DNA of 64,000 bases, from the IMG/VR virus record IMGVR_UViG_2609460327_000001, positions 128,001 to 192,000 of that record, one strand, 5' to 3'. Shown piece by piece: positions 10,514-64,000 of the stretch (within the stretch, counting starts at the first letter, position 1; every line of letters begins with the position of its first letter). The notes below the pieces were generated by a model. It made no database searches. It was not told the origin of the DNA and saw nothing but the letters and a program-made list of their open reading frames with translations. A program made the translations under genes and the position numbers. This DNA is from a virus (Duplodnaviria; Caudoviricetes).

Positions 10514-10960
10514 ATGGCAAGAGAGCGATTCACACTGGTAACAGACGAAGTAAAACGCGAGGAGGATATTCGCCGGCAGATTGAAACCGGCGAAATGAAT
10601 CCGGGAGTATATGCCACGCTGTCTGATGACGATAAAACAGCAGTATCTAATGTCCTGTTCGAGATGTCTTCCGAGAAGATCGAGCCGAACCAAGGCACAT
10701 CTGCATTGGAGTTTATTCTGTTTGCTTTCATGCGTATCACCAACAAGAAACTGTCCGGCATGAGCCTTACCGCAGAGGATCAGGAAGTAGAAGACGCGCT
10801 TCAAGTGATTCTAGGCAATCACCAGATCACGGATGGCACCACACCAAAAGCAGATTGGCTCTTCGATTACATGAGCTATGCGCAGGCCAAATCGGCCGAG
10901 TTCCTGCAGAACCGCGCAGAACACATCGACCGTAAGAAGAGCACCATCGGAGTGATCTAA
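10514..10960 (+). CDS. hypothetical protein (148 aa)
   Basis: RBS AAGGAG; TAATG coupling to the next gene. Confidence 0.6.
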   Translation: MARERFTLVTDEVKREEDIRRQIETGEMNPGVYATLSDDDKTAVSNVLFEMSSEKIEPNQGTSALEFILFAFMRITNKKLSGMSLTAEDQEVEDALQVILGNHQITDGTTPKADWLFDYMSYAQAKSAEFLQNRAEHIDRKKSTIGVI

Positions 10961-11460
10961 TGGATTTCGAGGTCGGTGACATCTTAATGATACGCGGAGA
11001 CACTTTTATGGTGTCTCCCATCATCAAAGAAGTCCTTCATTCCGAGTTCTCCCATGTCGCTATCGCTGTCGGAAAGAACCACATCTGCGAGATCGATGCC
11101 TTCAAGCGAATGCGGATCGTAAGTAATCCATATACCGATTACGACCTATACCGGATCAACACCGGACTAAAAGCAGCAGAGAAGCTAAAGATGCAGACGT
11201 TCCTCCAAGAGAAGTGCAGAACCATAAAGGGATATGATTGGCTGCGGATCATCGAGATCATCTTACGTCGGTATCTCAAGTGGGAAGTTTCTCTCAACAC
11301 CAAGAATCGGTACATCTGCTCGGAAGTAATTGACGCCGCGTATGCGGCCATCGGAATGAATCTGGTGCCGCAGCTCGAAGATGAGGACGTAACTCCGATG
11401 GATATCTTAAAATCGCCCTACATTGTTCAGATCAAAAATACCCTTGCAAAGAGTGTGTAG
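10960..11460 (+). CDS. YiiX/YebB-like circularly permuted NlpC/P60 papain-like amidase
   Basis: GDILMIRG...FSHVAI...GYD...YICSEVIDAAY...VTPMDI: His-before-Cys order typical of the permuted family. Confidence 0.8.
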   Translation: MDFEVGDILMIRGDTFMVSPIIKEVLHSEFSHVAIAVGKNHICEIDAFKRMRIVSNPYTDYDLYRINTGLKAAEKLKMQTFLQEKCRTIKGYDWLRIIEIILRRYLKWEVSLNTKNRYICSEVIDAAYAAIGMNLVPQLEDEDVTPMDILKSPYIVQIKNTLAKSV

Positions 11461-11545: not shown

Positions 11546-12991
11546 GTGGATTATACATTGGATATCGATGGCGTCCTTTTCGCGAGCAATAAGCCATTCT
11601 CTGCGACCCTCGCCGTACTGGAAGACCTCCAGGATGACAACGTGTTTACGGAAGAACGAGACTACGCCTCGTTCGAGAAGACCCCGCTTCAGTACCAGAT
11701 CACCTCAGAGACCGGAGACGATATTATCCAAGTCACAATTCCGTATTCCAATCGCCTGAGTGATTCAGATGCCGCACATGCCGTAGTTTGCTTCCATGAT
11801 GGTATCAGTAACTGGCGGCCGGTCAAGACCGACTGCGACCAAGATGGGCGCACTCTGCAAGCGACATTCGTGGGAAAAAAACTGACGATTGGCTTATTCC
11901 TTAACGAATATTTCTATTCAGAATATACACAGTACATGGCAGATGAGTTTCCTACATGGACAACGCTGCGCGGGAAAAAGTTCAGTCTTGGACAAAGATT
12001 TTTAAACTACTTCGGGATGCAGTTTGAACGAGGCATGGGTGATCTTAAAGATATCCGCCGCCAGCGATTCATCGACACGCTTGACCCGAACATGATGGAC
12101 TGGGTTTATATCTATCCAATCCCTAAGATTTCATCTACAGACAGTCTAACGATTTATGATCAAGAAAATGCTGACCTTCGTAAGCCGGTTCCCATCTTAA
12201 GCTCACTAAAAGAGTTCTTTTATAACATGGAGCAGAAGGGCGTCATTATTGATTACGAGTCTCGAGTCATGTACTCCATTCGTCGATATGAAACCATTCT
12301 AGGTGTAGTCGAGAATATTGATAACCGGCAGGGCTTCCGATCAACACCGACACCTCATTTAATCTGGAATGCCTTTGATGAGTTCGGGCTTTTAGTCGGC
12401 GTGAAGCGCCTGACGCTTGAGCGGAATGCAGAGTATCGTGAGCGCATCAAAGATGCTTTCCGTTACCCGGCAAACAACAGTGAGCTGGGGCTAACCCATG
12501 CACTCGGCCGCGAGCTTGGCTTAATCCGGAGATTCGTGTGGAAAGACGATACGAAGAACTTGTACATCAAAGGCAGCGGACTAGACCACCGCACGATCCG
12601 TGTGGATGGCCAGAAGATTGAACCTAACATGTACGCAGTAGATCGGTTCGGCAACATCATGATTCAGGCTTTCCGTGAAGGAAAAGAGCATACCGTCTCC
12701 ATCATCAAAGATGTCTTCAAGCATCAGCTGTACGATAAACAGGATGAAGAATTGTACAAAATGATGTTCGGTGAAGATGGGCAAGCCACAGACAAGCTAA
12801 TCAATTGGGTGAATTACATCAACGAAGTAGCTCCTGTGATGTGGGGGAAATTCAATTGGGATGAAGGATACTGGGATACGATCAGCAGAGACCTGACGGG
12901 GATCGGGTATCTTCCAAACATTTGGGATTCAGATATCAAGGTCTGGGACGATTACACATTCAGACTAGATCTAGCGAAGGAGAAGTTTTAA
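11546..12991 (+). CDS. putative baseplate wedge-like structural protein
   Basis: FDEFGLLVGVKRLTLERNAEYRERI resembles the LDxxGxxxGxxRxxxExDxxYRxRI motif of myovirus baseplate wedge proteins. Confidence 0.55.
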   Translation: MDYTLDIDGVLFASNKPFSATLAVLEDLQDDNVFTEERDYASFEKTPLQYQITSETGDDIIQVTIPYSNRLSDSDAAHAVVCFHDGISNWRPVKTDCDQDGRTLQATFVGKKLTIGLFLNEYFYSEYTQYMADEFPTWTTLRGKKFSLGQRFLNYFGMQFERGMGDLKDIRRQRFIDTLDPNMMDWVYIYPIPKISSTDSLTIYDQENADLRKPVPILSSLKEFFYNMEQKGVIIDYESRVMYSIRRYETILGVVENIDNRQGFRSTPTPHLIWNAFDEFGLLVGVKRLTLERNAEYRERIKDAFRYPANNSELGLTHALGRELGLIRRFVWKDDTKNLYIKGSGLDHRTIRVDGQKIEPNMYAVDRFGNIMIQAFREGKEHTVSIIKDVFKHQLYDKQDEELYKMMFGEDGQATDKLINWVNYINEVAPVMWGKFNWDEGYWDTISRDLTGIGYLPNIWDSDIKVWDDYTFRLDLAKEKF

Positions 12992-26622: not shown

Positions 26623-27681
26623 ATGCCAATCACAGATACAAGGAATATCGTGCAGTTTGTGAATGAGCTTGAATCGAGGATTAATAACTTAGATCAGGAC
26701 CTTTTGGATTGGGAGAATAATAAAAGCCAAATTCTAAATGCCCTGCCTCAGATCAATCTCAACCGCACGAATGCCATCACTGCAATCGTTAAAGCAGAGG
26801 ATGCACTAGCAGAGCTTAATACGGCAACTTACGGTGTCGTTGCGGCTAAAGGGCAGCGCCTTAAAAAACTGCTCGATGATCTGAAAGCACAAGTCATTGA
26901 GATTGCCGAGAATGCACCAGGCAAAGGCATTGAGATTGACTCTTACATTCAAGATGAAATCAACAATGCGATCGCCGGTGTAGACAGTGCAATTCACGAT
27001 GGATTAAAGCTGGACTATCGCATTAGGCAAGTTCAGGATATGGCTCAAGAAGGAGTAGAGTTTGCTCAAAAAGAAATCATTCTTCCTTTTAGCCATAAAA
27101 CAATTAATCCATTAAATCATTATGAGGTTCAGCTCGAACCGCAAGAAGGCGTAGAGTATGTCAAAGGGGATGTGACAGTACTTGATGCCGGCGGGGATCG
27201 CGTTGTGCTTGGAACGAATCAAGAAGCCATTACTGGAACGATCTATGAGAACGGAACGATTATTCTTTCTGAGTCTCCTAAAGTGCCAGTAACGCTGATT
27301 TATCCAGCACGGCTAAACTTTAATGATGTGCCAGAAGACTTCTTGTATTACACGTTGCAAATGATGCTATCGAAGTCTAGTCCAACCCTTACATTCGTTC
27401 AGAAAGTTGAATCGATCGTAACGGAAATCCTTACAGATATCCGGTACATGAAGGGAACGAACTGGACAGTAGATCACAGCATTATGCGTAACCGAAAGGA
27501 CATACTGCTGGAAAGTATCACGCCTAAAGGTTTGCAGGTAGATGTCCAAAACGGAAATGTTCACGCTATGTTCAGCTACAACGATCATCCGAACTTGAAA
27601 CACTTTGTTCTGGAGAAGTTAAATCCAGAAACGAATGAGTTCGAGCCGTATGATGGGGCTGAGGGGATTATTTCTAAATGA
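26623..27681 (+). CDS. hypothetical coiled-coil protein (352 aa), possibly structural
   Basis: RBS AAGGAGG; N-terminal heptad pattern; ATGA coupling to the next gene. Confidence 0.6.
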   Translation: MPITDTRNIVQFVNELESRINNLDQDLLDWENNKSQILNALPQINLNRTNAITAIVKAEDALAELNTATYGVVAAKGQRLKKLLDDLKAQVIEIAENAPGKGIEIDSYIQDEINNAIAGVDSAIHDGLKLDYRIRQVQDMAQEGVEFAQKEIILPFSHKTINPLNHYEVQLEPQEGVEYVKGDVTVLDAGGDRVVLGTNQEAITGTIYENGTIILSESPKVPVTLIYPARLNFNDVPEDFLYYTLQMMLSKSSPTLTFVQKVESIVTEILTDIRYMKGTNWTVDHSIMRNRKDILLESITPKGLQVDVQNGNVHAMFSYNDHPNLKHFVLEKLNPETNEFEPYDGAEGIISK

Positions 27682-28412
27682 CCGAGTTGATGAGCCGATA
27701 CCAGGAATTGAATGCAAGAGAAAAACCCGAAACTTCTAGCCGAGGGAAAAGAAATATGGCTGGTATTATTGTCAGTGAAGGATTTGCAGAACACATGAGA
27801 GTTACCTCAGGAGATCATGAACTTACGCCTGTAAGAATATCTGTCGACGGAACTGTTGCTCCTGCAGATGAAGAAACATTCTTAGCATCTAGGGCAATCC
27901 CAAGCAGAGGTAGGGGGTATAACTTTCCTCAAGAAATATTAGGAACCTTTTTTGATGGGTTGAGGACTAATATAAGGACAGATGATCTTCCGTATTATCC
28001 AGGAGTGAATCCTATTGAATTTGCTGACGAGGAAGTGCCAGAAGATGCATATACGCGCCAAGAAAGTTTCGACGATTATGCTGTATCTATTTATGCAGGT
28101 GGAGTACCTATTCCTGGAGTCTTGAGATATGAAATGACAGAGCAATTTGAAAACAGGAGAATTGAAGGCTACTTAGAACTACAGCGTTTTGGCGGCGATT
28201 CGATTTTGTATCAGGTTGCCAGGGAGCAGGAATCCCGTATCCGAACTATGATGATACGCATGATTAGAGACAGTGGTGAAGTGATAACCCAAGACGTGAC
28301 CAATGTGCACTGGATTCGCCGGACAATCAGCAGATCGGCAGGCGAAGACATGGAGACTGAGCGCTTTTATTTTACAGCTAATTCTATCAGATCATATGGT
28401 AGTGAAAATTAA
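27678..28412 (+). CDS. hypothetical protein with MTELMSRYQE leader
   Basis: ATGA overlap with upstream stop; shares its first 10 residues with the 28428 ORF. Confidence 0.6.
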   Translation: MTELMSRYQELNAREKPETSSRGKRNMAGIIVSEGFAEHMRVTSGDHELTPVRISVDGTVAPADEETFLASRAIPSRGRGYNFPQEILGTFFDGLRTNIRTDDLPYYPGVNPIEFADEEVPEDAYTRQESFDDYAVSIYAGGVPIPGVLRYEMTEQFENRRIEGYLELQRFGGDSILYQVAREQESRIRTMMIRMIRDSGEVITQDVTNVHWIRRTISRSAGEDMETERFYFTANSIRSYGSEN

Positions 28413-28427
28413 AGTGAGGGATTATAT

Positions 28428-28874
28428 TTGACGGAGTTAATGAGTCGATATCAGGAAAATGCAGTTCAGAAGCGAATACATCTTCAGGGGATTTTGAAAT
28501 CTGGCGAAGACGGGATGAAGTTTGAAGATGGCTATGATACCATTGCCCGAACGATTGCCGGTCAGATAGCGTCTTGTAATGAATCCAGGCATCAACCGGA
28601 AGATGATTATCGATCAGATTATTCCCTTTGTCTACCGGAAGTTTTCCTCCGATTCTATTTGAGTGACAAGAAAGTCTCGCTGGAAGAAGCAGAAGAAAAG
28701 CAGATTATGATGTCGATCGGGGAGCTTGATATTTATACGGAATGGTACGGCTATTCAGAGTATACGATTGAAGGGTATTGTGTCGAAAACTTCACCATCG
28801 GTAACCATGACATTGAATCGATCCTGAAGACGTATAAGGGGAAATACGCACACATCATTATGGAGATTTATTGA
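28428..28874 (+). CDS. acidic hypothetical phage protein with MTELMSRYQE leader
   Basis: TTG start with GAGGG RBS. Confidence 0.6.
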   Translation: MTELMSRYQENAVQKRIHLQGILKSGEDGMKFEDGYDTIARTIAGQIASCNESRHQPEDDYRSDYSLCLPEVFLRFYLSDKKVSLEEAEEKQIMMSIGELDIYTEWYGYSEYTIEGYCVENFTIGNHDIESILKTYKGKYAHIIMEIY

Positions 28875-51678: not shown

Positions 51679-52272
51679 ATGGATTTTATGGAGAAAGCCT
51701 ATCAAGGCGGCCTTACAGAGAGCGATCGCAGAGAGATGCTGGAACAATACAAAGCTGGCATGATGAAGCAGGAAAGCTTTAAGGCACCGAAAGGGAAGGT
51801 ACTATCCAAAGAAGATCCGCTGAATATGCCAAGACATCAAGTGTACGGCGAGTGCATTCGTTTCCACGAATGCCCGCTGTGCTTTAAATGCAGAAACTTC
51901 AATTCTTCTGACTCCGAATGCCGCAGCTGTATCCTCTTTGAAGAGGGCTCCATTTGCAATACAGAAAAGCATAACGAGAAGATTCTGAACATGATGATCC
52001 GCAGGCAGCGTGTTGATTTGGATGGAACTGACTTCAAATTATTTGATGTGCATTGCGAGGATGGCCACAGCGGGGTGCACAAGATTATCTTGCCTGGTGG
52101 CAAAGTTATTTTACGCAGCGAAGAAGAGTCGGATGCTGATACATCAACGATGATCCCATTCATCGGGCAGAAGCTTGAGTACTTCGTTAATAACGAATCC
52201 CAAGGCAAATTCATCCTGAAAGATGCTGACCATTTAGGCGTCTTCTCTTTAAAGGAGGTTAACGCAAAATGA
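51679..52272 (+). CDS. hypothetical Cys-rich (zinc-binding) protein
   Basis: ECIRFHECPLCFKCRN...CRSC...C...H cluster. Confidence 0.6.
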   Translation: MDFMEKAYQGGLTESDRREMLEQYKAGMMKQESFKAPKGKVLSKEDPLNMPRHQVYGECIRFHECPLCFKCRNFNSSDSECRSCILFEEGSICNTEKHNEKILNMMIRRQRVDLDGTDFKLFDVHCEDGHSGVHKIILPGGKVILRSEEESDADTSTMIPFIGQKLEYFVNNESQGKFILKDADHLGVFSLKEVNAK

Positions 52273-56473: not shown

Positions 56474-58760
56474 AGAGCTGGCATTTGACGTCAACCGAAT
56501 CCAAGTATTCGCTGAACGTATTATGGCAGGTTTAAAAGATTCGCAGGGAGAGACCCTGAATATACAGCGCCTAATGCGTGGCGTATTATCCAAGCTCAGA
56601 TATAAAGAAGTAACTGCAGATGAGATTACAAATGCATTTACTATGTCTGCACTGGAACTGATTTCAAAAGAAGAACCGAATTGGAAGTTTGCAGCCGCTC
56701 GTTCCTTTTTAACATCGTTATATAAAAAGGCGGCTTTCAATCGTAATTATAAATCCTATACAGATAAACCTTATGGCTCCTTCTATAATCTGATTACTAC
56801 AATGGTAGAGAAGAACCTATTCAGAAAAGAACTGCTAGAAGCTTACACCAAAGAAGAGATCGAGGAGCTAGAAGCTACAATATCTCCGGAGAATGATTTG
56901 CTGTTCGACTATATTGGCCTAATGACATTGAATGAGCGATACCTAACCAGCGACTATGACGGCAATGTGATGGAGCTGCCGCAAGAGCGCTATATGGTTA
57001 TCGCCATGTTCCTAATGCACCAGGAGCCAGCAGAGAAGCGTATGGAGCTGGTTAAAGAATCTTACTGGGCTATGAGCAACCTGTACATGACAGTCGCAAC
57101 GCCGACTTTATCCAACGCAGGTAAAGCCACAGGAGGACAATTATCCAGCTGCTTTATCGATACTGTGGATGATTCCCTCGAAGGGATTTTTGATTCCAAT
57201 ACAGACGTAGCTCGCCTTTCTAAAATGGGCGGCGGCATCGGCGTATATTTAGGCAAAGTTCGATCCAGAGGCTCCGACATTCGTGGTCATAAGAATACTA
57301 GCTCTGGCGTTGTTCCATGGATTCGCCAATTAAATAATACAGCAGTCAGCGTAGACCAACTGGGCACTCGTAAAGGCGCTGTAGCTGTCTATCTGGACGT
57401 TTTCCATAAAGACATCCTGTCCTTCTTGGACCTTAAATTAAACAACGGTGACGAGCGTATGAGAGCGCATGACATCTTCCATGCTGTCTGTCTGCCGGAT
57501 CTATTCATGGAAGCAGTCCGTGAGCGCGAAGAATGGCACCTGTTCTGCCCTCATGAAGTGAAGAGCATTATGGGATGGACAGATGCAAAGGGGCGTAAAT
57601 TGGGCTTAGAAGACTTCTATGATGAGAACCTTGGAAGCGGATCGTTCCGTGAGAAATATGCCGAAGCTGTGGCCAACCCGCTGCTGCCACGCATTACCGT
57701 ACAAGCGATTGATATCATGAAGCGTGTCATGAAGTCTCAGCTTGAGACAGGAACACCGTACATGTTCTATCGTGATACAGTAAACCGGGCGAATCCGAAT
57801 AAGGCGCATGGCATGATATATTCTTCAAATCTCTGCACAGAGATCATGCAGAACCAATCGCCAACAGTGGTCGAGTCCGAAGAGCTTGTAACTAAAGATG
57901 GTGAGACACGAATCATCATTTCCAAAATTCCAGGCGACTTTGTTGTATGTAACTTGAACTCAATCAACCTATCCAGAGCCGTTCCAGATGATGTATTAGA
58001 ACGCCTCGTTCCAATCCAGGTTCGCATGCTGGATAACGTTATCGACATTAATAACATCGAAGTGCTTCAAGCACAGCATACAAACACTAAGTATCGTGCC
58101 GTTGGTCTTGGAACATTCGGTCTCCATCATTTGCTTGCTCTGCTGAAGATTCGTTGGGAGTCCGATGCGGCTGTTGATTATAACGACACTCTCTATGAGA
58201 AAATCAACTTCCTTGCGATTAAAACAAGTATGGAGCTGGCTAAAGAAAAAGGAGCCTATCCAAAGTTTGAAGGCAGCGAATGGCAAAGCGGAAATTACTT
58301 TACAGATCGGAACTACAACACTGCTGAGTGGACTCAACTTGCCGGAGATATCCGTAAATACGGTATCCGCAATGCGAATCTAATTGCAATAGCGCCAAAC
58401 GGCACCACATCCATTATTGCAGGTTCTACAGCTACGATTGACCCTATTTACGAACTCGTTTCTTATGAGGAAAAGACAACGTATAAAGTGGCCAATCCTG
58501 CTCCGGATCTGAATAACGATACTCTTTGGTATTACAAAACAGCATTCCTGATTGACCAGCACGCCAGCATTAAAATGGCCGGTGCTCGATCAAGACATAT
58601 TGACCAAGGACAAAGCTTTAACCTTTATGTAACTCCAGACATCAAAGCAAGTGACCTTTTGAACTTGCATATGGCAGTTTGGGAGAACGGGATCAAGTCC
58701 AGCTACTATCTCCGAAGCCGCGCATTGACAATTGAAGAATGCGAGAACTGTGCTTCATGA
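56433..58760 (+). CDS. nrdA: class I ribonucleoside-diphosphate reductase alpha subunit with ATP cone
   Basis: ATPTLSNAG, QLSSCF, SNLCTEI, VCNL, IAPNGT, KSSYYLR, C-terminal CENCAS. Confidence 0.95.
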   Translation: MSATPLKVTKPNNRELAFDVNRIQVFAERIMAGLKDSQGETLNIQRLMRGVLSKLRYKEVTADEITNAFTMSALELISKEEPNWKFAAARSFLTSLYKKAAFNRNYKSYTDKPYGSFYNLITTMVEKNLFRKELLEAYTKEEIEELEATISPENDLLFDYIGLMTLNERYLTSDYDGNVMELPQERYMVIAMFLMHQEPAEKRMELVKESYWAMSNLYMTVATPTLSNAGKATGGQLSSCFIDTVDDSLEGIFDSNTDVARLSKMGGGIGVYLGKVRSRGSDIRGHKNTSSGVVPWIRQLNNTAVSVDQLGTRKGAVAVYLDVFHKDILSFLDLKLNNGDERMRAHDIFHAVCLPDLFMEAVREREEWHLFCPHEVKSIMGWTDAKGRKLGLEDFYDENLGSGSFREKYAEAVANPLLPRITVQAIDIMKRVMKSQLETGTPYMFYRDTVNRANPNKAHGMIYSSNLCTEIMQNQSPTVVESEELVTKDGETRIIISKIPGDFVVCNLNSINLSRAVPDDVLERLVPIQVRMLDNVIDINNIEVLQAQHTNTKYRAVGLGTFGLHHLLALLKIRWESDAAVDYNDTLYEKINFLAIKTSMELAKEKGAYPKFEGSEWQSGNYFTDRNYNTAEWTQLAGDIRKYGIRNANLIAIAPNGTTSIIAGSTATIDPIYELVSYEEKTTYKVANPAPDLNNDTLWYYKTAFLIDQHASIKMAGARSRHIDQGQSFNLYVTPDIKASDLLNLHMAVWENGIKSSYYLRSRALTIEECENCAS

Positions 58761-60033: not shown

Positions 60034-60483
60034 ATGGAATTAATGCAACCGTATCAATACGAAGGCAAAGGACTAGACTACGCTTACGACCAGGTGAAAG
60101 CTTTCCAAAAAGCGTTTAATCATCCAGTTAGCGAACTGCCGACATTCATGAATGCAGAGCGTGCGGCAAAGCGAATGAATTGGGTTAATGAAGAAGTACA
60201 AGAGTTTTTGGATTCTAAAAATGTTGTCGATCAAGCTGACGCTATGATTGATGTGATCTACTTTGCTATTGGCACACTGGTAGAGCTAGGCGTAAAACCT
60301 CAAGAACTCATGGATATCGTTCAGAATGCAAACATGAGCAAATTATGGCCAGACGGCAAACCTCATTACAAAGAAGACGGCAAAGTAATGAAGCCTGAAG
60401 GATGGGAAGATCCTTACGAAAAGCTCGCTGCAGCGATTGCCCGTCAATATGATACAGCAAGAGAGAACCTTGCGGGAGCTTAG
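60034..60483 (+). CDS. MazG-like / PRA-PH all-alpha NTP pyrophosphohydrolase (possible dUTPase)
   Basis: VKAFQKAF...EEVQEF...DAMIDVIYFAIG...NMSK...GKVMKPEGW. Confidence 0.8.
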   Translation: MELMQPYQYEGKGLDYAYDQVKAFQKAFNHPVSELPTFMNAERAAKRMNWVNEEVQEFLDSKNVVDQADAMIDVIYFAIGTLVELGVKPQELMDIVQNANMSKLWPDGKPHYKEDGKVMKPEGWEDPYEKLAAAIARQYDTARENLAGA

Positions 60484-60509
60484 GCTCCTCTTGGTACATA
60501 GGAGGCCAT

Positions 60510-60698
60510 ATGGCTTACGAAAATGCAATCCGCTGCCTCGAAGAACGGATCGGTGTATATCGCCGGATGAGAGATCGACATATGAGAACGAGCTATAACA
60601 TAAACACAAGGATTGGAGAAATGGAATCAGCAGTTCGCGTCCTTAAAACAGCTCAGAGTAGACAAGAAAAATTTGAGAAAGTCAGCCAGAAGCAATAG
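60510..60698 (+). CDS. small hypothetical protein
   Basis: RBS AGGAGG. Confidence 0.55.
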   Translation: MAYENAIRCLEERIGVYRRMRDRHMRTSYNINTRIGEMESAVRVLKTAQSRQEKFEKVSQKQ

Positions 60699-60714
60699 TC
60701 CAGGAGGACCGCCT

Positions 60715-60924
60715 GTGGAGTTAATGAAAAAGTATTATGAGCGCTGCGGCGTGATTAATGATCCGCCTAAGAAGCCAAGAGTAGTAGTAAGTGAGAAGGC
60801 TTTCAATTGCCTTCATGGCGGACAGGGATATGACTTAATAAGGGAAGCTGTTGAACTAGAAGTCGAAAGACGCATTCGGCTACAAGAAGCTCACTTAAAA
60901 GCGTTCAACTCGTTATTTAGATAG
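60715..60924 (+). CDS. small hypothetical protein with MELMKKY leader
   Basis: GTG 60715 with RBS AGGAGG at 60702-07. Confidence 0.6.
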   Translation: MELMKKYYERCGVINDPPKKPRVVVSEKAFNCLHGGQGYDLIREAVELEVERRIRLQEAHLKAFNSLFR

Positions 60925-60939
60925 AAAGGAGTCATCACT

Positions 60940-61272
60940 ATGGAACTTATGCAGGAATACAGAAAGAGATTTAGACAATCAACTGCTGCGGAAATCCTGG
61001 AAAGAATTAAGTCAAGCGGAATAATCGAAGGAAGAATGAAAAGAAGTAATGAATATGGAAAAAATCTGTTTGAAGAAGAGATTCAAGCTGAACTTGAAAG
61101 AACCCTAACTAGAAGAGTGAGTGATGCTATTGAAGTTCCATATGTAGGCATGCCGAATAATGAGTTAAATAGACAAAGACTAACGGGCGAAGTGCAGAGA
61201 ACGCTTGAAGATCTAAGAGGGGGAAACCTGCGTGGAACTATTCCGCCCGTATTTAAAACGTCACGTCTATGA
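60940..61272 (+). CDS. hypothetical protein with MELMQEY leader
   Basis: RBS AAAGGAG. Confidence 0.6.
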   Translation: MELMQEYRKRFRQSTAAEILERIKSSGIIEGRMKRSNEYGKNLFEEEIQAELERTLTRRVSDAIEVPYVGMPNNELNRQRLTGEVQRTLEDLRGGNLRGTIPPVFKTSRL

Positions 61273-61537
61273 CAACATGGGAGTCAGTAATATGGTTTCT
61301 GAAATCGCAAATGAAACGTTAAGAGATATGCAATATCTTATGCTGACTCCCGAAAACCTACAGATCATGGGCAAAGAGATATCAAAGAGGGCAGCAGGAA
61401 GGTTGTCTGGTCTTATGGATGACAAGCTTTACTTCGATGTTATGGTTGTATTGGGTCAAAACAATAGCGCGAATTTAATATGGGATATTCGGGATTGGGA
61501 AGGCAGAGCTGTAGAGGTAGAAAGGTTGATACCATGA
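61232..61537 (+). CDS. hypothetical protein with MELFRPY leader
   Basis: GTG with RBS GAGGGGG; overlaps the previous gene by 41 nt. Confidence 0.55.
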   Translation: MELFRPYLKRHVYDNMGVSNMVSEIANETLRDMQYLMLTPENLQIMGKEISKRAAGRLSGLMDDKLYFDVMVVLGQNNSANLIWDIRDWEGRAVEVERLIP

Positions 61538-62277
61538 CTGAAATTACAATAGAACAGCTGTACGATTTTAAAACCTGCCCCTTGCAATATAAGTTTACAA
61601 ATATCGATAAACTGCCTCGCTTAAAGACAGAGGAAAGCAAGGGGCTTCGTGAAGTTATGCTGGCCACGATCAGCTATTATTATGTCAACCTTCATGAAGG
61701 TAAATTTCTTACACTGAGTCAGCTGAAGGATAAGTTTACAAGCCTTTGGTATGACAAAGATAAAATCTATAAGATCAAGTTCGACCAGAAGCAGAATCAG
61801 CGTAAGAAAGAGCTTGAGGCTTTCGGCATGCTGGCACTATTCCATCGACAGCAGCAGTACAACCCGGATAAGACCGTCGGTGTTAATGTGGACTTCCGAC
61901 TAAAGATCGATCCGGACTTTCATATTGTGGGGCGTATTCCTGTGATCAGGGAAACGCCAGGCGGTAAACATGAGATCGTAAACTTTCAAACAAGAGTACA
62001 GCGCCCCACCGAGTTCTATCAGCGGACAGATATGGGCATCACACTACAGGCATTAGCTTTTCATTCAATGTACAGAAAAGAAGTAGATACGTATGTATTG
62101 CATCATTTAAAGACCTCTCAGTCCATCTATGTAGATCGGAAGCGTGCAGACTATCAAAGACTGTATAAGTCAGCTCGAATGCTTAAGAAGTCGATGGACG
62201 AAGGCTGGTACTACCCTCGGGAAGGTTTCCACTGTGATAGCTGCCCGACTCAAAAATATTGCATGGAGTGGCGCTAA
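61534..62277 (+). CDS. Cas4/AddB-like PD-(D/E)xK-fold protein with 4-Cys Fe-S motif, catalytic residues substituted
   Basis: ATGA-coupled start. FKTCPLQYKF...GRIPVI...EIVNFQT...QALAF...CDSCPTQKYC. Confidence 0.7.
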   Translation: MTEITIEQLYDFKTCPLQYKFTNIDKLPRLKTEESKGLREVMLATISYYYVNLHEGKFLTLSQLKDKFTSLWYDKDKIYKIKFDQKQNQRKKELEAFGMLALFHRQQQYNPDKTVGVNVDFRLKIDPDFHIVGRIPVIRETPGGKHEIVNFQTRVQRPTEFYQRTDMGITLQALAFHSMYRKEVDTYVLHHLKTSQSIYVDRKRADYQRLYKSARMLKKSMDEGWYYPREGFHCDSCPTQKYCMEWR

Positions 62278-62639
62278 TGGAATTAATGAGAAGATATAGG
62301 CTAAATATCAGCGAAGCAGAGGAAAAAAGCAACGACCAAGTAATGAGACTGGCTGGAAATATCGTTTATGATGTATTAAAACGTCGTGTCATAATGGATC
62401 GCTTTGGCGGTCCCTCGGTAATAAATAGAGCAGATATGGAAAAAGAAATTTATGATAATTTACTGACCGCTGGTCTTGCTTATCATGTTCGTGTCTTAAT
62501 AAATAGGCAATATACTAACTGTCAGATTCGCTATATGAGATCCAAAAAAGCGGGAGATTTAACAGGCGTAATGGATGAACATGATCTTGAGCGATACAAG
62601 GAAGAAGGGATAGTTCCACCTCATGGAATTAGATGGTAG
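62277..62639 (+). CDS. hypothetical protein with MELMRRY leader
   Basis: TAATG coupling, RBS GGAG. Confidence 0.6.
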   Translation: MELMRRYRLNISEAEEKSNDQVMRLAGNIVYDVLKRRVIMDRFGGPSVINRADMEKEIYDNLLTAGLAYHVRVLINRQYTNCQIRYMRSKKAGDLTGVMDEHDLERYKEEGIVPPHGIRW

Positions 62640-62645
62640 AAGCCT

Positions 62646-62906
62646 ATGGAGATGATGAAAAGATATCAAGATCGTCATAGGAACGTGACAAAGGTTCCTA
62701 CGTCTACACCAAGAACGATAGGTATGGATCGGCCAAAGGGTACTATTGTGCATGAAGGAGTACGTCCACAAGGCAGAGGAACGAAGAAAGTAAACACATG
62801 TGGGTGGCCAGAAGAGGATAAAGCGTTTCGGAGATTTGGGTGGACAATGGTAGGGGTTGGCATACTCGTTATCATTTCGTTTATTGTTCAGAACTTGGGG
62901 GAGTAA
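62646..62906 (+). CDS. small protein with MEMMKRY leader and C-terminal TM helix
   Basis: FGWTMVGVGILVIISFIV. Confidence 0.6.
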   Translation: MEMMKRYQDRHRNVTKVPTSTPRTIGMDRPKGTIVHEGVRPQGRGTKKVNTCGWPEEDKAFRRFGWTMVGVGILVIISFIVQNLGE

Positions 62907-62910
62907 TCAT

Positions 62911-63405
62911 ATGGAGCTTTTGTCAAACTACCAGCAAAAGGTAAGGGATGAAATTAAAGATATATATTTAAGAGGACACAAGGGCACTGGGCAGATTATA
63001 GGTTGGAATATACCGGTGCCGGTTGATGTGAGAGAAGAGATAGAGCGAATATCCATACAACCTGCGACTATTCTTCAGGACCCTGGAAGTGTTACGTATA
63101 TACCGGAAGAAATACGCAACTGGCAAGATCTACTCGAAGAAGAGCAGCGTCGTTCCGGGGATTCCGACATTGTAGATTATAGTCGAGAAGCTGAGAGAAT
63201 ATTCGAAGATAGAAGGCTTGAGGATGCTAGGCGACGGGCGCAAGAAAGAGAAGAATTAGCAGCCAAAGCACTTGCTGACTTAGAAAAAGCTGCAAAGACA
63301 AGAGAAGCCACAAAAAAGAAAGAAGACCGAATATGGCGGATCACAATAGTTACAGGATCTTTATTGATATTATCATCAGTCATAAATGCATTTCTAAACT
63401 CATAA
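62911..63405 (+). CDS. protein with MELLSNY leader, coiled coil and C-terminal TM helix
   Basis: ATG 62911 after GGGGGAG; IWRITIVTGSLLILSSVINAFL. Confidence 0.6.
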   Translation: MELLSNYQQKVRDEIKDIYLRGHKGTGQIIGWNIPVPVDVREEIERISIQPATILQDPGSVTYIPEEIRNWQDLLEEEQRRSGDSDIVDYSREAERIFEDRRLEDARRRAQEREELAAKALADLEKAAKTREATKKKEDRIWRITIVTGSLLILSSVINAFLNS

Positions 63406-63848: not shown

Positions 63849-64000
63849 ATGAGTGACACCCAAACGGACTATAAAGTCGTCCAAACCCATGGCGCAGAGA
63901 TGCGCGATGACATTATTGATTGGGGCATTGAAGCCGTAAATGCACCCGATGTATGGAATACCACAACCGGTAAAGGAGTCAAAGTGGCTGTCCTTGATAC
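63849..64000 (+). CDS. S8 subtilisin-family serine protease, N-terminal part (3'-truncated); no signal peptide
   Basis: RBS AGGAGG; DWGIEAVNAPDVWNTTTGKGVKVAVLD contains the subtilase catalytic Asp motif. Confidence 0.8.
   Translation, partial: MSDTQTDYKVVQTHGAEMRDDIIDWGIEAVNAPDVWNTTTGKGVKVAVLD

Follow-up and report, generated by a model that had tools for sequence, protein, structure and literature searches.

A short peptide at the start of unrelated proteins in a clade of large Bacillota phages and prophages

Tagged genes in the window and in its genome

The window analysed here is a stretch of 64,000 nucleotides (bases 128001-192000) from a 206,307-bp virus record of 42.8% G+C, IMG/VR entry IMGVR_UViG_2609460327_000001, labelled G000 hereafter. 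Nine of its genes begin with closely similar versions of one short peptide, M-E-[LM]-[MLF]-x-x-Y, referred to below as the tag (Table 1). An earlier note, made from the sequence alone, had listed these starts, seven from 60034 to 62911 together with 27678 and 28428, and all nine are present as described. It had also attributed a good ribosome-binding site or translational coupling to most of the motif codons. The start at 62277 is coupled (TAATG), 60715 has a GGAGG ahead of it, the Shine-Dalgarno (SD) sequence at 62646 is weak, and the two GTG starts and one TTG start among the nine had gone unstated. The gene at 61232 shares its first 41 nt with the gene before it, and an alternative ATG is present at 61292.

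Table 1. Tagged genes of the window and two untagged neighbours, in window coordinates (aa, amino acids)
Position	Strand	Product	Tag and start	Basis
27678..28412	+	244-aa protein, no family, within tail/baseplate module	MTELMSRYQE, ATG	Sequence; Pfam/PHROGs
28428..28874	+	148-aa phrog_20281 protein	MTELMSRYQE, TTG	Sequence; PHROGs
60034..60483	+	MazG-like (PRA-PH) pyrophosphohydrolase	MELMQPY, ATG; first 8 codons (60034-60057)	Pfam
60715..60924	+	69-aa protein, no family	(GTG)ELMKKY; GGAGG 7 nt upstream	Sequence; Pfam/PHROGs
60940..61272	+	110-aa protein, no family	MELMQEY, ATG	Sequence; Pfam/PHROGs
61232..61537	+	101-aa protein	(GTG)ELFRPY	Sequence
61534..62277	+	PD-(D/E)XK nuclease, untagged, clade-conserved		Pfam PDDEXK_1, 2.4e-10
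62277..62639	+	120-aa protein, no family	MELMRRY, ATG overlapping upstream stop (TAATG)	Sequence; Pfam/PHROGs
62646..62906	+	86-aa tail-anchored membrane protein, polar N-terminal 60 residues	MEMMKRY, ATG	Hydrophobic window, residues 63-86
62911..63405	+	164-aa tail-anchored membrane protein	MELLSNY, ATG	Sequence; Kyte-Doolittle
63849..64000	+	Start of 297-aa intracellular-type subtilase (S8), running past the window end (genome 191849-192742)		Pfam Peptidase_S8

The motif is concentrated at translation starts. Translated in six frames, the window contains 11 matches to E[LM][MLF]..Y, all on the plus strand and nine of them directly at start codons; the other two are internal, at 51733 and, within the large subunit of ribonucleotide reductase (RNR), at 56829. 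When the whole of G000 was scanned for E[LM][MLFI]..Y, 21 of 33 matches stood directly at an ATG, GTG or TTG opening a reading frame (ORF) of at least 50 aa, and the same start-anchored scan of the reversed sequence gave none. The strict start motif, defined as M-E-[LM]-[MLFIV]-x-x-Y at a start codon, occurs internally at 7 of 62,186 positions in 274 crudely called ORFs, a frequency from which 0.03 N-terminal tags would be expected against the 21 observed (Poisson P 3.6e-52). A looser motif combined with an SD filter yielded a curated set of 23 genes, about 8% of the called ORFs, with variants such as MDLMFGY and MNLMEVY. Three looser matches that had no SD or lay out of frame within another gene were left out, among them window 52022 (MELTSNY, 43 aa) and genome 7243.

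According to PHROG and Pfam scans, the structural module of G000 is of the myovirus type and includes giant fibre-like proteins. The genome also encodes a PolC-type polymerase, DnaN, primases and helicases, as well as RNR, ThyX, a sigma-like factor, a subtilase and an actin-like protein. Relatedness was judged by the protein encoded beside the major capsid gene, a homologue of the ORF124 decoration protein of Bacillus phage 0305phi8-36, to which it is 29.1% identical; identity to its counterpart in Moorella phage MTATph1 is 41.8%. This marker identified 20 related loci in IMG/VR at 58-93% identity, and five of the records were taken whole: G001 (216 kb), G003 (197 kb), G004 (a 191-kb provirus), G005 (198 kb) and the closest relative of G000, G002, a 117-kb fragment that is 59% complete.

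All six genomes carry start-anchored tags, with strict and relaxed counts of 21 and 25 in G000, 8 and 12 in G001, 8 and 10 in G002, 11 and 19 in G003, 3 and 4 in G004, and 15 and 17 in G005, as compared to 0-1 in the reversed-sequence controls. Five further related records held 2-4 DNA-pattern matches each, against 0-2 in their controls. The same DNA pattern had no match in the outgroups 0305phi8-36, MTATph1 and Jenst, and no ORF of MTATph1 begins with the tag. The scan of the full replicon and its relatives that the earlier note had proposed shows enrichment over background in G000, recurrence across the clade and absence from the outgroups. As far as sequence can tell, the tag is a trait of one clade of phages of about 200 kb and prophages of Bacillota, with spore-forming hosts. 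Database homologues bear the labels Alicyclobacillus shizuokensis, Bacillus sp. ILBB4 and Paenibacillus spp.

Conservation of the peptide and diversity of the bodies

Across all six genomes, 76 curated sites were retained after three PolC-internal matches and eight sites without an SD-like sequence had been taken out. Their profile is sharply uneven: Met occupies position 1 at all 76 sites, Glu position 2 at 65 (Asn 6, Asp 5), Leu position 3 at 72 and Tyr position 7 at all 76, while position 4 is shared by Ile (22), Met (21), Val (18) and Leu (8), and position 8 by Leu (33), Ile (10) and Met (7). Positions 5 and 6 are free, although Ala is the commonest residue at position 6 (22/76). Information is limited to positions 1-4 and 7-8, with essentially none beyond position 10. 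In the five relatives the form is M-E-L-[I/V/M]-x-x-Y-[L/I/M], and for the clade the motif is Met-Glu-Leu-[Ile/Met/Val]-x-x-Tyr-[Leu/Ile/Met], a short linear motif borne by three to more than 20 mostly small, non-structural proteins per genome. Four tags are of the form M-[T/S]-E-L. The specificity of methionine aminopeptidase is established, and removal of the initial Met would return these variants to the common register.

Two ORFs of G003 depart from the simple arrangement. One, at 123214-123699, contains three in-frame tags, at residues 1, 44 and 64; it could be what is left of deleted genes, a series of nested starts or a polyprotein of small size. The other, at 124939-125177, is a tagged 47-aa ORF that shares sequence, in a different frame, with an untagged ORF of 55 aa with a C-terminal membrane anchor. 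Because this pair resembles the tagged tail-anchored gene at the equivalent place in G000 and G005, a frameshift or a sequencing error is the likely explanation.

The conservation lies in the peptide and not in the DNA. Glu is encoded by GAA at 37 sites and GAG at 28, Leu3 by all six of its codons (16/13/12/12/12/7) and Tyr7 by TAT at 53 sites and TAC at 23, and these shares are close to the genome-wide ones. The adjacent genes at 27678 and 28428 differ by four synonymous and no non-synonymous changes in codons 2-10, bearing out the synonymous variation described in the earlier note. The tag is also kept in orthologues of only 25-57% overall identity and persists on MazG between G000 and G003. 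In the one tagged family found clade-wide, all 10 database homologues are tagged (M-E-[LM]), one of them after nine extra called residues. Synonymous codon use at genome-wide shares, together with retention of the tag in such divergent orthologues, shows that selection acts on the peptide, and codons 2 and 3 are under amino-acid selection.

The question of initiation at the ATG inside the motif, raised in the earlier note, is partly answered. An SD-like match is found at 66 of the 76 sites, with a spacing to codon 1 that peaks at 7-8 nt. Moreover, most tags of the relatives have Ile or Val at position 4, and the ATG within the G000 motif is thus not conserved as another possible start.

What follows the tag varies from protein to protein. 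After removal of the first 10 residues, BLASTP sorted 48 tagged proteins into five small orthologue groups and 35 singletons, and Pfam and PHROGs assign a family to just two of the nine tagged proteins of the window, the MazG-like one and the 28428 protein; at this level the bodies are as unrelated as first described. No relative of the 62277 protein was found in IMG/VR, and a Foldseek comparison of the model of the 154-aa core family with the PDB returned nothing at E <= 0.001. The tagged proteins named by Pfam are MazG/PRA-PH (G000 and G003), a dUTPase (G001) and a Tad2-like protein (G003, 35 bits); the Tad2 and Tad6 matches in G000 are sub-threshold.

Where a tagged protein belongs to a known fold, the tag stands in front of it. 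The protein at 60034 is assigned to the MazG group by Pfam PF01503 (PRA-PH, 7.4e-17, 62 bits against a cut-off of 21.3), with the family core spanning residues 21-100. Its homologue in Jenst, 57.5% identical, has a different N-terminus and is untagged. Among the best 119 homologues in a large database, nine carry the tag and 110 do not; seven of the nine are among the closest, on contigs of up to about 230 kb, and all but two are close clade members, while shorter, more distant homologues start at the enzyme core. The earlier reading of the MazG motif as an extension ahead of the family core is hence upheld, and homologues of tagged proteins in other phages are without it: besides the Jenst enzyme, ORF196 of Enterococcus phage EF24C, a homologue of the 28428 protein, is untagged and begins MRKQILKGWV. 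The dUTPase of G001 (149164-149679; Pfam 1.2e-28) has its domain from residue 36, with the tag and a 35-residue N-terminal extension, and its gene is placed after PolC, where other genomes hold unrelated tagged genes. Outside the clade, homologues of the dUTPase and of the Tad2-like protein are likewise untagged.

Structure models agree with this arrangement. In the AlphaFold2 model of MazG, an all-helical protein with a predicted local distance difference test score (pLDDT) of 94 overall, residues 1-10 form a coil with a pLDDT of 59; in that of the 154-aa core family they are likewise low, with a helix at residues 2-9 followed by coil. In both models the first 10 residues score 58-59, as compared to 84-98 for the body. 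The tag thus lies outside the folded body, as an addition to it, and the comparison with homologues shows that it is gained by genes entering these genomes and absent from their homologues elsewhere.

A proposed common fate inside the infected cell and its alternatives

Our findings are accommodated by a reading to which we give an even chance, namely that the tag is a portable N-terminal recognition peptide and that a single partner reads it on all these proteins within the infected cell. The fixed register from a free N-terminus, the flexible placement of the tag and the concerted drift of position 4 all point toward one shared cytoplasmic reader. With regard to the drift, Met prevails at position 4 in G000 (18/23), Val in G003 (9/16) and Ile in G005 (8/15), and orthologues show the same genome-specific shift, as expected if all tags track a single reader. 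In such a scheme, one trans-acting cytoplasmic partner would read the first eight residues and give fast-changing accessory and nucleotide-metabolism proteins a common fate, be it docking, clipping or turnover.

The location of the tagged genes bears on where that fate would be met. Only two of the 23 G000 genes lie in the tail/baseplate module; the other 21 are in replication, nucleotide or accessory modules. They include two arrays of small genes, six at genome 57187-58671 and seven at 188034-191405, with others at 67172-69091 near the gene for the actin-like protein, at 12245 and 43447 near helicases, and at 199986 and 200330 immediately after PolC. PolC, helicases, RNR and MazG are among the neighbours of tagged genes, and in each of G000, G001, G003 and G005 a tagged gene family comes after PolC. 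The untagged PD-(D/E)XK nuclease gene has tagged genes on its flanks in each of the five genomes whose synteny was compared. Promoter and terminator scans of two arrays gave counts equal to those of shuffled sequences.

Some of the tagged proteins appear to be membrane-bound. Transmembrane (TM)-like segments are found in five of the 76, three of them as C-terminal anchors, although the one at G001 128917 is possibly spurious. A Kyte-Doolittle scan places C-terminal anchors in the proteins at 62646-62906 and 62911-63405, as the earlier note had it. Directly upstream of the subtilase gene, G000 and G005 encode a tagged tail-anchored protein; in G001 this place is taken by a tagged membrane protein whose TM segment is internal. 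The TM-bearing members and the replication and nucleotide gene neighbourhoods together argue for a cytoplasmic rather than a virion fate.

A virion fate was the analogy first drawn for these peptides. To our knowledge, the capsid-targeting sequence (CTS) of phage T4 is the only well-studied case of a shared address peptide in phages. It is a 10-residue N-terminal peptide whose sequence differs from the tag. As in T4 internal proteins IPI-III and Alt, the tag is a short peptide at the extreme N-terminus of unrelated, fast-evolving proteins, often in tandem. Capsid targeting of this type, in which the tag would load small proteins into the prohead for injection and perhaps be removed by the head protease, is nonetheless improbable. 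It would account well for tandem arrays of small, fast-changing genes with only the N-terminus in common, for the two tagged genes inside the tail/baseplate module and for the counter-defence-like character of some tagged proteins (the Tad2-like protein of G003 and the sub-threshold Tad2 and Tad6 matches of G000). Yet four to five of the 76 tagged proteins have TM-like segments, three as C-terminal anchors, and membrane proteins cannot ride in a capsid; unlike the soluble cargo of T4, the set includes tail-anchored proteins along with nucleotide enzymes of the replication module. Almost all the G000 genes lie away from the structural genes, as described above, and the oldest, clade-wide ones stand beside PolC and helicases. 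Furthermore, no tagged protein matches a PHROG virion family, and no head, scaffold or portal protein of G000 starts with the motif or is among the 18 internal relaxed matches. In contrast to T4, there is no recognisable head-protease cut site, a weak comparison since the cut-site rule of this phage is not established, and G000 is a distant relative of 0305phi8-36 and not T4-like. Of the proposals in the earlier note, a portable peptide-level tag, as opposed to a DNA repeat or a gene family, is well supported, while the T4 analogy is weakened by the membrane members, the location of the genes and the head proteins. The major-head-protein match of G000 (genome 82500-83615) covers only a 230-aa ORF aligned to the C-terminal half of the profile, and the gene may be longer than called, or interrupted.

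A second alternative dispenses with any reader, the first eight residues tuning translation start or early elongation, Met/formyl processing or stability in cis and spreading as an "expression cassette". The strict attachment of the motif to the start codon and its travelling with the SD sequence would suit such a role, as would its presence on horizontally acquired genes (MazG, dUTPase, phrog_20281), and the first codons of a gene are well known to affect protein yield. However, conservation follows the degeneracy of the code, so any effect must act via the peptide and not the mRNA. An invariant Tyr7 and a nearly invariant Leu3 beside free positions 5 and 6 are what a binding motif would show, not a compositional ramp, and most genes of these genomes, including highly expressed structural genes, are untagged. 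We regard a purely cis-acting effect as holding a poor chance.

That the peptide is a functionless by-product of history, left by 5'-end recombination or duplication or by diverged paralogues, is very improbable: the ten identical residues shared by the adjacent 27678 and 28428, the triple-tag ORF of G003 and the genome-specific preference at position 4 would fit it, but synonymous sites are randomised while the residues are kept across genomes with markers 58-74% identical and orthologues 25-57% identical, the bodies have no BLASTP or Pfam relationship, and the tag is kept on MazG between G000 and G003. The tags have nevertheless probably spread through the copying of 5' ends.

Candidate readers and known systems

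If the tag is read by one intracellular partner, the leading candidate for that partner, itself a weak one and rather unlikely to be right, is the S8 protease encoded beside the tagged arrays. Pfam assigns the protein to the subtilases (PF00082 Peptidase_S8, 9.7e-59, 199.5 bits), the catalytic Asp, His and Ser motifs are present in the translation (VAVLDTG, HGTHVAG and GTSMATP), and it matches subtilisin BPN' at 3e-56 without having a signal peptide. Its gene lies downstream of tagged genes, within 6 kb and on a common strand, in all five clade genomes. Subtilisin specificity is dominated by P4 and P1, and the tag, with much information at positions 4 and 7, little at 5-6 and Ala favoured at 6, matches such a choice. 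Tyr7 would then occupy the S1 pocket and residue 4 the S4 pocket, and the first seven residues would be either clipped off or held.

The intracellular subtilisin proteases (ISP) of Bacillus offer a partial parallel. Their LIPY/F propeptide, with the motif [LVI]-[IFLV]-P-[YFH] at about residues 6-9, is carried by the protease itself and lies in the substrate cleft of this intracellular S8 enzyme (PMC6220982). Like the tag, it is a short peptide, at residues 3-9, with two aliphatics and then an aromatic, and the phage encodes such a protease beside its tagged genes. Unlike it, the tag is without Pro, places an additional residue ahead of the aromatic and is found on other proteins. The phage protease lacks an ISP-type LIPY/F motif. 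Many of its clade homologues start MEFKLADF, and an N-terminal ..L-A-D-[FY].. matching [VLIMF]xx[YF] occurs in 16 of 40 homologues; to judge from its letters, this N-terminus reads like a variant of the ISP propeptide without Pro.

Extended further, this scheme would amount to a viral "proprotein" network, in which a phage subtilisin reads a seven-residue tag (Tyr7 as P1, residue 4 as P4) on as many as one in ten phage proteins; we consider it unlikely. Through clipping or holding, the protease would set the moment at which rapidly exchanged counter-defence, nucleotide-pool and membrane proteins are activated, relocated or destroyed, and newly captured genes would join by acquiring eight codons.

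Several points weigh against a shared intracellular reader, and against the protease in particular. Homologues of the S8 protease are present in 64 phage records, mostly of large Bacillus phages, many of which have no tag or background counts only, and MTATph1 encodes one (50% identity) while being untagged; the phyletic pattern of the protease does not track that of the tag. When the S1 and S4 residues were compared with Met versus Ile/Val at tag position 4, no matching change was seen, and the residue equivalent to Gly166 of BPN' is Cys in the G000 enzyme, which may narrow S1. The synteny may reflect only a hypervariable insertion zone beside a conserved gene, and the hydrophobic pattern at positions 3, 4, 7 and 8 fits an amphipathic helix as well as a protease substrate. 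The drift at position 4 could also arise from the spread of 5' ends within a genome. In addition, ORFs and starts come from computation only, with a simple ORF/SD caller and not a trained gene finder. Among the candidates examined, namely the clamp, an AAA+ ATPase, the actin-like protein and the S8 protease, no reader was established, and phyletic subtraction left 44 G000 genes common to G001, G003, G004 and G005 and absent from MTATph1, too many to name one.

The sliding clamp was considered since its ligands also use a 5-8-residue terminal motif to bring many proteins to one hub. The spacing of tag positions 4 and 7 matches that of the PCNA-interacting-peptide (PIP) box, the phage encodes a DnaN of its own, and PolC is a neighbour of the oldest tagged genes. 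The clamp was rejected as reader, given that the tag is unlike beta-clamp ligands: the logo of the 76 tags has no Gln and does not resemble QL[SD]LF, and it also departs from the PIP box Qxx[LIM]xx[FY][FY], with Met or Thr at position 1 and Leu, Ile or Met at position 8 in 50 of 76. Ligands of DnaN/beta-type clamps are in any case not PIP-like. Membrane proteins and a Tad2-like protein would be odd clamp clients as well. Besides, 0305phi8-36, which has no tags, also possesses a polIII-beta homologue (PMC3201878).

Two other candidates were set aside. The AAA+ ATPase is 60-63% conserved in the clade, but its homologues occur in 119 records of unrelated phages, leaving no specific link, and the actin-like protein adjoins one tagged cluster only.

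A further comparison is offered by the encapsulation peptides of microcompartments (PduP, PduD, EutC) and the cargo peptides of encapsulins, in which a terminal amphipathic helix with a flexible linker brings unrelated enzymes to one assembly. These peptides are longer than the tag, at about 18 residues, and the Pfam and PHROG results for G000, from a scan that was not exhaustive, contain no shell genes.

Open-access full-text word searches of the literature returned no description of this motif. The tag system appears to be a second case of a shared address peptide beside the T4 CTS, unrelated to it in sequence, and its carriers, large phages and prophages of Bacillota, make up a clade that has been little studied. 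Through such peptides, viruses and cells alike assign a single fate to many unrelated proteins, and the present set includes counter-defence-like and dNTP-sanitising enzymes. The tag would mark which hypothetical genes form one functional set and provide an eight-residue handle for pulling out the reader, and it shows how newly acquired genes get wired into the phage programme. If portable, it could also be used to direct cargo in Bacillus or Paenibacillus cells under infection.

Some neighbouring genes deserve mention in their own right. A conserved trio on the minus strand at genome 25068-27837 encodes DUF2997, DUF1257 and a classical AAA ATPase of 550 aa, and homologues of this ATPase are found in mycobacteriophages and in Vibrio and Pseudomonas phages. 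The actin-like protein (genome 69766-70959; ALP_N and MreB-like_C, Alp7A-like) is clade-conserved and encoded directly after a tagged cluster that includes a P-loop-like protein of 265 aa. Within the fibre/tail module, window 10960-11460 encodes a 166-aa protein that matches a PHROG labelled enoyl-CoA hydratase-like, with a sub-threshold match to Peptidase_C92.

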